64,000 nt of DNA from Betaproteobacteria bacterium (GTDB taxonomy: Bacteria; Pseudomonadota; Gammaproteobacteria; Burkholderiales; Sulfuricellaceae), in assembly GCA_021373185.1 (NCBI GenBank), contig JAJFTF010000005.1, positions 10,572 through 74,571 on the forward strand. The letters run 5' to 3'. This document shows, in pieces, positions 13,916-16,962 of the stretch (positions are counted from its first letter, which is position 1; every line of letters starts with the position of its first letter). The translations under genes and the position numbers were made by a program. Under the pieces are notes generated by a model that had not been told where the DNA came from, ran no database searches, and worked only from the letters and a program-made list of their open reading frames with translations.

Positions 13916-13947
13916 ATAAACAAGGGCGCTGCGGCGCCCTTGTTTAT
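13916..13947. terminator. Bidirectional intrinsic terminator
   Basis: ATAAACAAGGGCGC-tgcg-GCGCCCTTGTTTAT, 14-bp perfect stem between convergent genes. Confidence 0.8.
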
Positions 13948-13977
13948 TTGGGTGTGTGGTTGGTTTTGAGTCTTGGT

Positions 13978-13995
13978 TGGCTCGCCGGTTTGGAT
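13978..13995. repeat. Left copy of 18-bp perfect inverted repeat flanking the cyclase gene
   Basis: TGGCTCGCCGGTTTGGAT; reverse complement occurs at 15354-15371. Confidence 0.85.
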
Positions 13996-14062
13996 AATTA
14001 TGGGCAATGGATCGAGGTCATTCAAGCGTTTTGACTAGAGCGCCAAGGCAATTACTTAACAA

Positions 14063-15220
14063 TTATTTTTTTGTGGCCTTAACTGGATTGGCTTTGACTG
14101 GATTGGCTTTGACTGGATTGGCTTTGACTGGATTGGCCTTAACTGGATTGGCTTTGACTGGATTGGCCTTAACTGGATTGGCCTTAACTGGATTGGCCTT
14201 AACTGGATTGGCCTTAACTGGATTGGCCTTAACTGGATTGGCTTTAACTGGATTGGCTTTAAGCGCGTCAAATTTGGCCACATAGTGAACTGAGAAGGTT
14301 ATTACACTATCATCTGCCAACTTCTCTTTTTCGATTTCTTTCTTTGTCGCACCTAGATCAAAAATAACGCTAAATCCTTCGGCGTCGTTAGCTAATGTAT
14401 ATGGGGTAACTTCTATAGAACTCGTATGTCCGGGGTTAATCACACTTGCCCATGACATTTTTATTTTGCATTTGTCTTTTGTCAAAGGTTCGGCTGGTAA
14501 AGATATTGTGTAAGACCCTACTACATTTTTCACTTTTAAATATGTAGTTTTGATCTCCGTTTTCTCCCATTTGTACGAATTAAGTGGGTGTTTTGACGAT
14601 TCAGGAATTATTACATCTTTACTACAGAAGATCATGCGTGGCGAATCTTCAGCAATACCTCGAATATAAACACTCTCCGTGCGGAAGAGTTTTCGGATTT
14701 TTTCGGGTATGGCTCCAGCCAAAAATGCCTCGTCAATTACTATACCGCTTGGCTTCGCCAAATCATTTAATCTAGAAGCTAGATTTAATATCTGCCCGGA
14801 GTAATCAATAATTTCCTCGCCCGCAAATAAACAAAATGCTGTTCCGCGGGCAACGCCAAACCCAATTTTTGGTGGCAAAGGGAAGTTAATCATCAAGTCA
14901 TTAGTAAGCATGGCAGGGTAATCTGCAACGGCTTTAAGGCATTTGTTGAGCACTGATTCAGCCACAATAAGCAAATCGGCCTGATTGGATTTATGCTTAA
15001 AAGCCATAATAAGCCCGTCACCAGTGGGCTTAGCAAATACAGCGTCAGTAAAATAATCACTGAGCAATTTCTCATAAAACTTGGATATAAATATCGCCAT
15101 CTCTGGCGCTTCACGTTCAGTACTGAACCCGGAAAAATTACGTATATCACATACGACAATTATTACAAATTCGGAACGCCCTTCCGCATCTCTAAATTTA
15201 TTTATCAAATCATCAAGCAT
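14063..15220 (-). CDS. Class III adenylate/guanylate cyclase-family protein with C-terminal domain and (KANPV)12 tail
   Basis: VCDIRNFS, KPTGDG, GFGVARG, DYSGQILNLASRL motifs; ATG 15220 chosen (TTG 15253 is an alternative). Confidence 0.8.
   Translation of the reverse strand: MLDDLINKFRDAEGRSEFVIIVVCDIRNFSGFSTEREAPEMAIFISKFYEKLLSDYFTDAVFAKPTGDGLIMAFKHKSNQADLLIVAESVLNKCLKAVADYPAMLTNDLMINFPLPPKIGFGVARGTAFCLFAGEEIIDYSGQILNLASRLNDLAKPSGIVIDEAFLAGAIPEKIRKLFRTESVYIRGIAEDSPRMIFCSKDVIIPESSKHPLNSYKWEKTEIKTTYLKVKNVVGSYTISLPAEPLTKDKCKIKMSWASVINPGHTSSIEVTPYTLANDAEGFSVIFDLGATKKEIEKEKLADDSVITFSVHYVAKFDALKANPVKANPVKANPVKANPVKANPVKANPVKANPVKANPVKANPVKANPVKANPVKANPVKATKK
14081..14260 (-). repeat. 15-bp coding tandem repeat x12 (KANPV)
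   Basis: Unit AAR GCC AAT CCA GTY; 12 units counted by eye. Confidence 0.95.
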
Positions 15221-15353
15221 GTCGACCCTCTTAATTTGTGCATCCCCATTCAAGTAACACGAGGGGCTACGAATTCATGGAATAGATTGTAGGCGCAATT
15301 CGCTAATAACGATATGGCACATGCATTTTAATGACCTGCTGCCTAGTTTTCGA

Positions 15354-15371
15354 ATCCAAACCGGCGAGCCA
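15354..15371. repeat. Right copy of 18-bp inverted repeat
   Basis: ATCCAAACCGGCGAGCCA. Confidence 0.85.
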
Positions 15372-15940: not shown

Positions 15941-16344
15941 CTGGGAACGTTACCAAAAATAGCGGTAAATGGGTAGCGGCAGGCGCTTTGCAACTTCATG
16001 CACATTTGCAGTGGATAACTTTGTTGAAAACTTGTATGAATAGCGCTTAAGTGCATTGCCAGTAAGGAAAATAGTTAGCAAGGTTAAAAATTGTGCTAAA
16101 AAATTATTCAATAAAAACATATGGATAGTTAAATACACACTGGCATCATGGAGTTAGCGGCCAATGTATAACCATCCTCTCCAAAATGTGCATTAATTGC
16201 CACATACAGGCATGTCCTCATCATGGTTAATGCCCTAATCGGTAAGCATTTTATAGATGCGGGTAAATTTATTCCAATTGGGGCCGATATAAATAGACGA
16301 CCTGCCAAAATCAGGAAAACCATGTTGTCTGGGCGTTATTACAA

Positions 16345-16962
16345 TTGAAAAATAAAATTTTTACGATTCTCGCGTTTCCCGGCGATCTTCCCGGTCAGTT
16401 TGCACTGACGGCGGCATTGCTGTGTTTTTCGCTTGGCGCGGAGTCTGCTGCGTGGTCAACCGTGGCGACCAGCGAGAAAATGCGCATCGAGATCGATATG
16501 ACCAGTTTTATGCGTCAGGGCGGCATTGTGACGGCCTGGGACAGGGAGGTTTATTCTGCCGCCGAGCAGGCGAGACCGGGTGATTTCTACTTCAAATCGT
16601 CAAAGTCGCTGGTTCGCTATGGGTGCGATTCCCGCCTTGCGGAGCTGGTGATGAAGGTTTATTACGCCGAGGATGGCAGCGAGATCAAGGTTGTCACTGC
16701 CGAAAACTATGGCAGGCCGAATTATGTCATTCCCGATACCGAGGGCGAGCGGAAATTCGAGTTTGTCTGCAACTACAAGAAGGTCGAGAAAGAAAAACCG
16801 ATTGTCGTTGCCAAGAAGAAAGTGAAATCGAAAGAGCCCGACAAGGCCGAGGCCGAAAAAGCCGCAGCAGCAAAGGCGGCTGAAGAAAAAGCCAAAATGG
16901 CCAAGCCGCCACTTACGGGCAGGGCGATTCCCCGGTATCTTCCTTACCGCAAAACGAATTAA
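16345..16962 (+). CDS. Exported protein, surface-adhesin-E-like domain plus Lys/Ala-rich tail
   Basis: Signal-like N-terminus, WD...YxC...YYxEDG pattern; family call from memory; start uncertain. Confidence 0.55.
   Translation: MKNKIFTILAFPGDLPGQFALTAALLCFSLGAESAAWSTVATSEKMRIEIDMTSFMRQGGIVTAWDREVYSAAEQARPGDFYFKSSKSLVRYGCDSRLAELVMKVYYAEDGSEIKVVTAENYGRPNYVIPDTEGERKFEFVCNYKKVEKEKPIVVAKKKVKSKEPDKAEAEKAAAAKAAEEKAKMAKPPLTGRAIPRYLPYRKTN

Follow-up and report, generated by a model that had tools for sequence, protein, structure and literature searches.

A 1,394-bp insert that carries a nucleotide cyclase gene between perfect 18-bp inverted repeats is probably an orphan cargo cassette, lacking a recombinase, of a widespread family of betaproteobacterial serine-recombinase/Rep_trans elements, with inverted attachment cores as its crossover points. 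By its sequence, the repeat is a pair of attachment cores resembling the 3' end of tRNA-Asn rather than a pair of transposase-binding ends. In our explanation, complete elements occupy tRNA-Asn or tRNA-Arg genes at their 3' ends. Of such an element, the copy in the window, the 64,000-nucleotide stretch of DNA analysed here, would retain the hairpin-bearing leader, the cargo and attR and nothing else, and would additionally hold a second, inverted tRNA-Asn-like core at its promoter end. The inverted cores would act, or would once have acted, as crossover points at which the cassette is flipped or swapped. We found no published description of this serine-recombinase element family.

The insert and its tRNA-Asn-like arms

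The insert lies between htpG and a NUDIX gene. As the original prediction stated, its ends form a perfect 18-bp inverted repeat: TGGCTCGCCGGTTTGGAT occupies 13978-13995, and 15354-15371 is its exact reverse complement. On the cargo (minus) strand, arm 1 (13978..13995) is the terminal 18-mer ATCCAAACCGGCGAGCCA, a copy of the attachment core at the 3' end of the cassette. Arm 2 (15354..15371, plus strand) is the identical 18-mer at the promoter end, with its CCA end facing outward. Chance would produce about 9e-5 perfect 18-bp inverted pairs per 3.5-kb stretch. Scanning 3.5 kb turned up no further perfect inverted pairs except two of 12 nt and the htpG terminator, whose stem is 14 nt long. That terminator hairpin (13916..13947, plus strand, 14-bp perfect stem) lies outside the insert. 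G014, the closest relative, keeps this hairpin, and just downstream of it the two genomes part.

The description of the segment as an AT-rich unit holding one gene also held up: its GC content is 41.2% against 58.5% on either side, and the cyclase gene is its only gene. The segment contains no transposase ORF, and no target-site duplication is shared by the flank ending in GAGTCTTGGT and the flank beginning with GAAATCAGCC, both as predicted. An empty allele had been suggested as a check. At least 12 congeners join htpG and the NUDIX gene by a spacer of only 70-215 bp, and the segment is therefore an insertion.

The arms resemble the last 18 nt of tRNA-Asn and match the 3' end of the genome's own tRNA-Asn at 13 of 18 positions. 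In about 30 related cassettes the arm-1 position reads RTCC....YGGYGMRCCA. Inward of arm 2, the resemblance to tRNA-Asn is carried further by a T-loop/T-stem-like stretch, CCTAGTTTTCGA (15342..15353, plus strand), which in other copies is CTGGTTCGA, identical to tRNA-Asn. The window cassette has a P box (described below) and the 18-mer at its 3' end, and the 18-mer and the T-loop-like stretch at its 5' end. The 2.77-Mb assembly contains two exact copies of the 18-mer, both of them arms of this insert. Allowing up to two mismatches adds one match, at C41:44052, where a second cassette of the family ends. The genome has the core TGGCTCGCCG followed by the arm sequence at these two cassettes and nowhere else.

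We ruled out a tRNA gene or other structured RNA at the cassette ends, since ARAGORN found no tRNA gene there in nine related loci and Rfam gave no match at E values up to 1 in ten loci. The only tRNA-type genes that ARAGORN found in the window, a tRNA-Arg and a tmRNA, are both unrelated to the insert. We also considered a direct-repeat box common to the 5' and 3' modules and rejected it; the 5' box is better taken as the T-rich tail of a palindrome or terminator upstream.

A family of cassettes and complete elements

The insert holds a conserved leader with a hairpin, CCCCGTGTTACTTGAACGGGG, and a conserved 3' box, CCAGTGCCCAGATTT (the P box). The hairpin motif is present in more than 119 species-representative betaproteobacterial genomes. 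Elsewhere in the genus, sequences 80-86% identical to the leader and left end surround cargo of unrelated kinds, namely SIR2-STAND, a Septu-like ATPase with HNH, HigB/XRE-like genes, and YciI with GST. The window leader upstream of the hairpin (15267..15341, minus strand) is 80-84% identical over about 60 nt to leaders with other cargo. A -10-like box, TACAAT, lies at 15286-15291 on the cargo strand, and the leader presumably acts as a promoter. The first ORFs 3' of the hairpin loci encode 68 unrelated proteins, rich in GmrSD, TIR, TIR-NLR, dCTPase, HEC-05/06, NsnA and HicA. Across betaproteobacterial species, the framed cargo is very diverse and consists mostly of anti-phage genes.

In the window, the hairpin (15244..15266, minus strand) reads CCCCTCGTGTTACTTGAATGGGG against a consensus of CCCCCCGTGTTACTTGAACGGGG. 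It folds with -2.5 kcal/mol (z-score 0.23), compared with -7.8 kcal/mol in a complete element. The P box (13996..14010, minus strand), the putative recombinase-arm part of attR, reads CCATTGCCCATAATT on the cargo strand and matches the conserved CCAGTGCCCAGATTT at 11 of 15 consensus positions. Both motifs are decaying.

No fewer than nine loci have a tRNA-Asn or tRNA-Arg gene at a distance of 3.57-3.94 kb upstream of the hairpin, and the interval encodes a 538-aa protein with Resolvase, Recombinase and Zn_ribbon_recom domains together with a 355-aa protein. The 538-aa protein, a large serine recombinase, adjoins tRNA-Asn or tRNA-Arg in relatives and ends in codons that are antisense to the tRNA end. 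Of the 355-aa protein, 9 of 13 members match Rep_trans. Searching by its sequence against the PDB and PHROGs gave nothing useful, whereas comparison of folds matched its model to RepSTK1 (4cij; E = 5e-12). These data identify it, at the level of a predicted structure, as a Rep_trans-type rolling-circle initiator or relaxase. The invariant hairpin is probably the Rep nick site or origin, and its degraded window copy is a candidate for the same role.

Complete elements, of which Azonexus hydrophilus ZS02 and Polaromonas eurypsychrophila provide examples, run in the order serine recombinase, Rep_trans protein, small ORF, divergent leader with the invariant hairpin, variable cargo and attR. An ORF of 130 aa may encode a directionality factor. 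Their attL consists of the tRNA, about 9 nt and an inverted P box, and their attR of the P box and the 18-mer. The type of 18-mer agrees with the tRNA that is occupied at three complete elements (L089, L081 and L111) and at two tRNA-adjacent cassettes (L077 and L143), with L118 as an exception. A Rep or recombinase gene adjoins the hairpin in at least 20 of 119 loci, and canonical tRNA-adjacent copies without a recombinase also exist, for example L068 and L143.

The genome under study gave no tblastn match to the recombinase or to Rep, which indicates that the cassette cannot move by itself. Among 40 species of the same taxonomic family we found no complete element, only Rep homologues of 25-27% identity in unrelated tRNA islands that lack the hairpin. 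Mobilisation in trans within this lineage is therefore conjecture.

The cyclase cargo

The longest ORF of the insert spans 14063..15253 on the minus strand. Its likely start is the ATG at 15220, giving a gene at 14063..15220 that encodes 385 aa. In the protein, a cyclase domain (residues ~1-190) is followed by a beta-rich and so far uncharacterised C-terminal domain (~200-318) and then by a disordered (ANPVK)13 tail, which is encoded by a tandem array of about 13 units of 15 nt (14074..14263, minus strand). The tail is modelled with pLDDT below 50 and is absent or much shorter in all 25 aligned homologues.

The motifs reported for the protein, CDIR, KPTGD and NLASR, are present, and all fall on family-invariant columns. 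The two metal-binding Asp residues, D25 (CDIR) and D68 (GDG), are invariant in 26 family members and align with CyaC. The Asn..Arg pair proposed earlier, N146 and R150 (NLASR), is likewise invariant, as is R125. The suggestion of ATP-type base selection also stands, with an invariant Lys/Asp pair formed by K64 and D139, the latter seven residues ahead of the Asn. We take the catalytic and specificity roles of these residues to be those established for CyaC. The family profile matches CyaC with E = 3e-3. When the AlphaFold model of the cyclase (pLDDT 82) was compared with the PDB by Foldseek, CyaC, CyaB and Cya2 were among the top matches, with E = 7e-10 for CyaC (1wc1) and target-normalised TM-scores of 0.65-0.75 for the top hits; the Pycsar cUMP synthase ranked 36th. 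The window protein misses the gathering score of PF00211 (12.6 bits against a cut-off of 21.9), and 6 of 26 homologues match this family at E up to 0.01, the best at 7e-5, which places them in a divergent clade. From sequence and predicted fold, we assign the cargo to the class III cyclases, and its substrate is probably ATP. Like CyaC of Spirulina platensis and PycC (7r65), the protein has the cyclase fold and all six canonical catalytic and specificity positions. Unlike them, it shares less than 20% identity with either and has an additional beta-rich C-terminal domain of about 120 aa and a repeat tail.

As predicted, no Pycsar-type effector is adjacent: the cassette holds one gene, and the homologues are solitary too. 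Two features set the cyclase apart from Pycsar: it has no partner effector gene, and its Lys/Asp pair speaks for ATP rather than for the pyrimidines that Pycsar uses. PADLOC, its PycC models included, gave no match at E values up to 1, and no cyclase homologue is among the 68 first ORFs of the hairpin loci. One homologous cyclase cassette lies 255 nt downstream of a tRNA-Arg gene. The anti-phage role raised by the original prediction is plausible because sister cassettes carry known defence genes. Judged by the company that the cassette keeps, the cargo is most likely a single-gene defence or signalling module. With its uncharacterised C-terminal domain, this solitary cyclase may represent a new, minimal type of defence or signalling by cyclic nucleotides.

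Inverted arms, alternative explanations and known systems

Simple integration by a serine recombinase yields directly oriented cores, and the inverted arms therefore count against our explanation, as do the degraded hairpin and P box of the window copy and the lack of a complete element among the 40 species of the taxonomic family. Directly oriented cores at the canonical target would be expected of such an element; the window copy has inverted cores and lies at htpG/NUDIX, and its location away from any tRNA gene counts against assigning it to the element family. We tried three routes to the present arrangement and rejected each. Plain integration by a serine recombinase, which would leave a direct repeat of 2 bp at the outer boundaries, is contradicted by flanking dinucleotides that differ. 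A split palindromic target, TGGCTCSCCG-N20-110-CGGSGAGCCA, matches none of the 40 genomes of the taxonomic family. Deletion from a complete element is contradicted by the polarity of the 5' arm, which is opposite to attL, so that a single deletion cannot yield the window cassette.

An inverted 5' arm is present in just 8 of 119 related loci. In the four other complete copies, the arm pairs judged by eye are imperfect, with inverted matches at 4-6 mismatches. The 18/18 identity in the window would be accounted for by a recent exchange between the arms. At the htpG/NUDIX site, G000 and G014 carry cassettes in opposite orientations with the same flank/18-mer junction, and the same is seen at a second site, where G017 is opposite to G009 and G016. 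Either orientation thus occurs against the same flank in related species, which suggests that the arms permit flipping or exchange, and we infer that the inverted cores act, or once acted, as crossover points at which the cassette is flipped or swapped. These flips are deduced across species with different cargo and could instead reflect separate insertion events, or homologous recombination that replaced the entire locus. The inserted DNA at the second site includes the 18-mer and about 8 outer bases. Apparent empty alleles there were rejected as such; they hold another insert of about 1.4 kb, so the precise insertion junction cannot be defined at that site.

We weighed our explanation against four others. 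An inert relic is unlikely: an old integration would have decayed, a chance rearrangement would have made the inverted arm and a single recent gene conversion its identity, with no recombination system acting and with the differences between species due to homologous recombination in the flanking core genes. The absence of a recombinase or Rep from the genome agrees with such a relic, as do the degraded hairpin and P box, a G014 site that holds a different gene with one arm only, and a second site that resembles a replacement hot spot, with unrelated occupants and a common flank boundary. However, several families of Betaproteobacteria show the two-arm build, with 83-116 nt separating the 5' arm from the hairpin, around different cargo, which makes independent accidents unlikely, and opposite orientations at an identical flank/18-mer junction are seen at two separate loci. 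Those same orientation variants, together with the identical inverted sites and the putative internal promoter, might fit a programmed invertible segment in which the arms are sites of a dedicated invertase and flipping alters read-through into htpG or antisense transcription of the NUDIX gene. We regard this as extremely unlikely, as no invertase gene lies inside or beside the cassette and the orientation variants differ in cargo, a pattern that exchange fits better than switching. Moreover, gene and promoter turn together, so the gene's own expression would not switch.

The two remaining explanations assign the arms to another recombination enzyme. The original prediction proposed a non-autonomous element mobilised in trans by an IS, that is, a MITE or mobile insertion cassette with a passenger gene, on whose 18-bp ends a DDE transposase acts. 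The perfect repeat (18/18), the 5'-TG...CA-3' termini, the missing internal transposase and the existence of five units of like build at different loci and in different taxa all speak for this proposal. It nevertheless did not survive the comparison and is now highly improbable. Target-site duplications are found in none of the five complete copies (the window copy and four others), and the related loci examined contain no transposase and no IS with these ends. A genome-wide search with the 18-mer and a 10-nt core returned only the two cassettes, tRNA-Asn and one partial tRNA-Asn, a result on which we rejected an IS or MITE origin; beyond the insert itself, the 18-mer core occurs in the genome only at the second cassette. 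The arms of other copies are imperfect, and the arms, which resemble tRNA-Asn, form a continuum with the attachment sites of the serine recombinase. Most family members lack the inverted arm. The closest cyclase homologues occupy cassettes of this same kind that lack an inverted 5' arm, a finding that had been named beforehand as one that would refute the transposon. A tyrosine integrase, the P4-type integrase on contig C53 of this genome or a relative, might instead recognise the tRNA-Asn-like cores and move or invert the cassette as an islet of its island. Tyrosine recombinases readily invert DNA lying between inverted sites. On C53, a flank is followed by an inverted partial tRNA-Asn (49 nt), a promoter-like stretch and the integrase (Arm-DNA-bind_3, Phage_integrase), the same polarity as the 5' arm and promoter of the cassette, and a short stretch after the tRNA piece, TCCATTAG, is common to both. 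Similarity past the tRNA piece is weak, however, 5 of the arm's 18 positions depart from the real tRNA-Asn core, and the 3' end of the cassette is clearly an attR of the serine-recombinase family, P box included. None of these cassettes was seen within tyrosine-integrase islands, and we consider this explanation very unlikely.

A broader form of the orphan-cassette explanation is possible, though we put it forward as doubtful. Carriers roughly 6 kb long that encode a large serine recombinase and Rep_trans would dock at tRNA-Asn or tRNA-Arg and deliver mostly anti-phage cassettes, each with its own promoter, into an undescribed gene-cassette economy in which the cassettes outlive the carrier. 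The surviving recombinase-less units would keep the cis sites, namely the hairpin origin and the attachment core, and the subclass with inverted cores would flip or swap at hot spots other than tRNA genes. Swapping of inverted-core cassettes in either orientation can be likened to recombinase-mediated cassette exchange. The window cargo would then be a new single-gene, cAMP-based anti-phage module, a cyclase fused to a sensor or effector domain. If true, this would be a widespread route by which Betaproteobacteria acquire, keep and shuffle defence genes, in hosts that include iron oxidisers, nitrifiers and denitrifiers important in groundwater and wastewater. As easy handles on variable cargo, the conserved hairpin and 3' box can be used to mine new defence genes. 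The family would also contribute serine recombinases that target tRNA genes and have a self-overlapping attachment site, which makes them interesting for genome-engineering toolkits, and the inverted-arm cassettes pose a concrete mechanistic puzzle accessible at the bench.

Several known systems resemble the cassette in part. Mobile insertion cassettes and MITEs, such as MIC231 of Bacillus cereus, carry passenger genes between inverted repeats with no transposase inside; their ends match a resident IS, they have target duplications and they are usually multi-copy. The window cassette shares the passenger gene between inverted repeats and the missing transposase, but it has neither a partner IS nor a target duplication and is not multi-copy. 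Integron cassettes are likewise small, mostly one-gene units with diverse cargo that includes defence genes, bounded by conserved recombination sequences. The present cassettes differ from these in their putative own promoter and in being tied to a serine recombinase, not IntI, and inspection of the aligned cassette ends revealed no attC with R''/R' boxes (GTTRRRY / RYYYAAC).

In Firmicutes, small, helper-dependent elements combine a serine recombinase with a Rep_trans (MOB_T-type) relaxase that acts on a cis hairpin-type origin; as far as these accounts go, they occur in streptococci and staphylococci, often in the oriT of ICEs or in protein-coding genes (PMC5704250, PMC7563843). The betaproteobacterial family has the same pairing of serine recombinase and Rep_trans protein, here outside Firmicutes, and differs in its tRNA-mimicking attachment site and conserved cargo leader, neither of which figures in those accounts as far as they go. 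Tycheposons are small integrative elements that occupy tRNA genes and combine an inward-facing integrase with two modules, a small one for replication and one for cargo, and successive insertions leave degenerate integrase-less remnants and partial tRNAs; 910 of 937 elements have a lineage-specific tyrosine recombinase, and their replication genes encode a polymerase, primase or helicase (bioRxiv 10.1101/2020.12.28.424599). Compared with Tycheposons as described, and by concept only, the present family is set apart by its Rep_trans protein, conserved hairpin leader and inverted-arm cassettes.

In SCC/SCCmec, the large serine recombinases target a conserved gene, rlmH, and insert at its 3' end. 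Many units (psi-SCC, SCC-like) have cargo and no recombinase, with short attachment repeats bounding the units and inverted repeats at the extremities. Insertion rebuilds the target site, and units therefore stack up. Defence cassettes in SCC are mobilised in tandem by CcrAB/CcrC (PMC11470126). The betaproteobacterial family is like SCC in its large serine recombinase, its 3'-end target and its recombinase-less cargo units, defence genes included. It differs in hosts (Betaproteobacteria) and target (tRNA-Asn or tRNA-Arg, not rlmH), in encoding Rep_trans and an invariant hairpin, and in a recombinase whose C-terminus is coded across the attachment site; the window copy differs further in lying away from a tRNA gene, between inverted rather than direct cores.

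An insertion between htpG and a NUDIX gene

A repeat search confirmed that the 18-mer TGGCTCGCCGGTTTGGAT at 13978-13995 recurs as its exact reverse complement at 15354-15371. By chance, 3.5 kb would be expected to contain about 9e-5 perfect inverted pairs of 18 bp. A search of the 2.77-Mb assembly for the 18-mer, which the original prediction had proposed together with a search for an empty htpG-NUDIX allele, found no exact copies beyond these two. The GC content of the enclosed 1,394 bp is 41.2%, compared with 58.5% on either side. An ORF scan of this segment found one cargo gene on the minus strand (longest ORF 14063..15253; likely start ATG at 15220, giving 385 aa) and no transposase ORF, and there is no target-site duplication at the segment's ends. 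The description of an AT-rich, one-gene unit between perfect inverted repeats, lacking both features, thus stands.

On one side the segment adjoins the htpG terminator (13916-13947); on the other it meets a convergent gene for a zinc-ribbon NUDIX protein at its stop codon. The allele is empty in 12 or more further genomes from the genus: the ends of htpG and NUDIX are 70-215 bp apart, and these short spacers hold only the common terminator, plus REP-like palindromes in some. By comparison of these alleles, the window segment is an insertion at htpG/NUDIX. The closest relative, G014, has flanks that are 88-94% identical and carries a different insert of ~1.3 kb at the same place, encoding an HTH-HATPase-DUF4325 protein; there too, an 18-mer-like motif adjoins NUDIX.

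Long REP-like palindromes, such as TGTAGGAGCGACCTCCAGGTCGCGAT...ATCGCGACCTGGAGGTCGCTCCTACA, occur in congeners at loci L006, L008, L012, L014 and L019, where the spacer has nothing else in it. Beyond the NUDIX gene, window positions 15950-16962 hold a 38% GC intergenic stretch and then a 205-aa protein, which matches Surface-adhesin protein E (PF16747, E=8e-11).

The cyclase cargo

The cargo protein scored 12.6 bits against Pfam Guanylate_cyc, under the threshold of 21.9, and gave no match in PADLOC and no meaningful match in NCBIfam. Its family has at least 273 members, mostly of 316-333 aa, many from Gallionellaceae-type metagenomes. D25, K64, D68, R125, D139, N146 and R150 are invariant in a 26-member alignment, a set that covers the class III cyclase residues: two metal-binding Asp, a Lys/Asp pair of ATP type and an Asn/Arg pair. 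The family profile retrieved Spirulina CyaC at E=3e-3, and PF00211 was matched by 6/26 members. When the AlphaFold model (pLDDT 82) was compared with known structures, CyaC ranked first (E=7e-10, target-normalised TM-score 0.65-0.75), followed by CyaB, Cya2 and many other cyclases, with the Pycsar cUMP synthase at rank 36. Residues and modelled fold uphold the original prediction of a class III cyclase with an ATP-type Lys/Asp pair.

The model shows a confident beta-rich domain at residues of about 200-318, to which no match was found. The protein ends in ~65 residues of disordered (ANPVK)13 tail. Coding for this tail is a tandem array on the minus strand (14074-14263), made up of about 13 repeats of 15 nt that come in two variants. 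The tail is missing or much shorter in 25 aligned homologues. Since the array is in frame, its length could vary without breaking the cyclase gene. Homologues of the cyclase are solitary genes in varied contexts, often with toxin-antitoxin pairs alongside. We infer a role in defence for the cyclase cargo.

A cassette family with tRNA-like ends

The left end of the segment (13974-14023) and the stretch upstream of the gene (15239-15305) recur in relatives at 80-86% identity. Every recurrence has the same order on the cargo strand: leader, hairpin, variable gene(s), CCAGTGCCCAGATTT (the P box) and an 18-mer ending in CCA. The window's own genome, G000, has a second such cassette (C41:44052-46730; locus L016 2053-4730), whose cargo is an 810-aa SIR2-STAND protein; the cassette is truncated on its promoter side, where it adjoins a GNAT-toxin-like gene pair. 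Other cargo in the genus comprises a Septu-like ATPase with an HNH nuclease, three-gene HigB/XRE-like sets, YciI with GST, small membrane proteins and an ankyrin protein. One copy is cargo-less (L062 3087-3330, G017 contig C81), with 166 nt from 18-mer/P box to hairpin and no ORF between. A recombinase is absent from all cassettes compared in the genus.

More than 119 species-representative genomes contain the hairpin core CCCGTGTTACTTGRACGG, among them those of Gallionellaceae, Nitrosomonas, Nitrotoga, Thiobacillus, Rhodocyclaceae, Polaromonas and Ferrovum. Among the matches listed, a conserved promoter-like stretch always precedes the core, and the first ORFs downstream encode 68 unrelated proteins in which known defence families are abundant (GmrSD, TIR, TIR-NLR, dCTPase, HEC-05/06, NsnA, PD-T4-2, SoFic and HicA).

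At least nine loci have a co-oriented tRNA-Asn or tRNA-Arg gene 3.57-3.94 kb upstream of the hairpin, and about 15 others have a tRNA gene (Arg, Asn or Met) at a distance of 110-500 nt on that side. The 3.7-kb interval encodes proteins of 538, 355 and 130 aa. The 538-aa protein is a large serine recombinase whose last 13 codons, WLPDLGSNQGPTD, are antisense to the 3' half of tRNA-Asn (e.g. L118 1900-3516, L082 6338-7954), so that integration or excision would alter the C-terminal tail of the enzyme. Nine of 13 members of the 355-aa protein's family match Rep_trans; the R-x-Y-x-K motif of this protein is invariant, and its modelled structure (pLDDT 87) matches those of the rolling-circle initiators RepSTK1 (4cij, E=5e-12) and RepDE. 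The 130-aa ORF of these complete elements gave no match. Rep or the recombinase flanks the hairpin in at least 20 of 119 listed loci. Because its stem and loop are invariant and it lies beside the rep operon, the hairpin is a putative Rep nick site or origin; we take its loop, ACTTGA, to resemble the CTTG/ATA nick sites of phiX174 and pC194 type. In many members (L126, L137, L140, L118, L069, L081), a near-perfect, GC-rich palindrome of 50-60 nt lies 60-130 nt upstream of the hairpin, at the position taken in two-armed cassettes by the inverted tRNA piece.

In complete elements, attL consists of the tRNA (...TTCGA + 18-mer), about 9 nt and an inverted P box, and attR of a P box, an 18-mer that is identical with or resembles the tRNA's last 18 nt, and host flank. 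This anatomy implies an attP of two inverted P boxes around a 27-28 bp core copying the tRNA end, which would be a typical serine-integrase dyad, with the tRNA rebuilt on integration. The 18-mers come in Asn (...GGSGAGCCA) and Arg (ATCTCTTCGGGCGCACCA) flavours, which agree with the occupied tRNA in complete elements L089, L081 and L111 and tRNA-adjacent cassettes L077 and L143; L118 is an exception. Cassettes without a recombinase also occur directly behind tRNA genes, and one, 255 nt after a tRNA-Arg gene, carries a homologue of the window cyclase. The promoter-end arm in relatives, ...CTGGTTCGAGTCCAGGTCGGCGAGCCA, equals the tRNA-Asn(GUU) T-arm, acceptor strand and CCA with one change, and the window 18-mer matches G000's own tRNA-Asn end at 13/18 positions. 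Neither ARAGORN nor Rfam found an RNA gene at these cassette ends. Elsewhere in G000 (C53:3999-5456, L188), an inverted 49-nt partial tRNA-Asn, from anticodon stem to CCA, precedes a P4-type tyrosine integrase (Arm-DNA-bind_3 + Phage_integrase), a separate tRNA-Asn island.

The orphan cassette and its inverted arms

Besides its cargo, the window copy has an attR-type 3' end (18-mer 13978-13995; P box 13996-14010, 11/15 consensus positions) and a leader and hairpin (15244-15266) in which two substitutions weaken the stem. The fold, at -2.5 kcal/mol, is no better than that of shuffled sequence, compared with -7.8 kcal/mol for a complete element. An inverted tRNA-like piece (15342-15371) is extra at the promoter end. 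Homologues of the recombinase, Rep and the small ORF are all missing from G000, and no complete element was found among 40 species of the host's family, making this cassette an orphan. On our best reading, it belongs to a family of serine-recombinase/Rep_trans elements. This reading replaces the transposon mobilised in trans of the original prediction, since the ends recur around other cargo as tRNA-like attachment ends and none of the five complete two-armed units has target duplications.

These units (1.4-2.5 kb) come from Gallionellaceae, a Nitrosomonadales bin and a Burkholderiaceae bin, with 83-116 nt from 5' arm to hairpin. An inverted 5' arm is found at only 8/119 listed hairpin loci, never with Arg-type ends among these. 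Arm pairs of other two-armed units are imperfect, which makes the window's 18/18 identity exceptional. Its 5' arm bears the 3'-type variant GGTTTGGAT, suggesting that sequence has passed from one arm to the other. Simple serine-recombinase integration predicts directly oriented cores, and the inverted polarity cannot result from a single deletion from a complete element.

Two between-species site comparisons suggest that the arms act as crossover points. At htpG/NUDIX, the promoter end adjoins NUDIX in G000; a reverse-complemented 18-mer and P box are there in G014. At a second site, a left flank common to G017, G009 and G016 (80-84% identical) runs into the 18-mer; it meets the promoter end in G017 and the 3' end with an inverted leader in G009 and G016, and the cargo differs. 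Cassettes may thus have been flipped, or exchanged in either orientation, at the arms. The same orientation differences between species could also reflect independent insertions or whole-locus replacement. In four other species of the genus (G013, G015, G002 and G011; loci L196, L198, L201 and L202) the second site, which elsewhere is filled by two-armed cassettes, holds an unrelated occupant of ~1.4 kb, starting TACACAGCGAGGGGCCTTTCC, with an identical flank boundary. The 18-mer and about 8 outer bases are part of the inserted DNA, and the second site is a replacement hot spot.

In a literature check that was not exhaustive, we found no published description of this betaproteobacterial element family. 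Its build resembles that of staphylococcal SCC islands, which include cassettes that lack a recombinase (PMC11470126), and, compared by concept, that of tycheposons (bioRxiv 10.1101/2020.12.28.424599). It also resembles the build of integrative mobilisable elements in Firmicutes whose relaxases are of the Rep_trans type (PMC5704250, PMC7563843).
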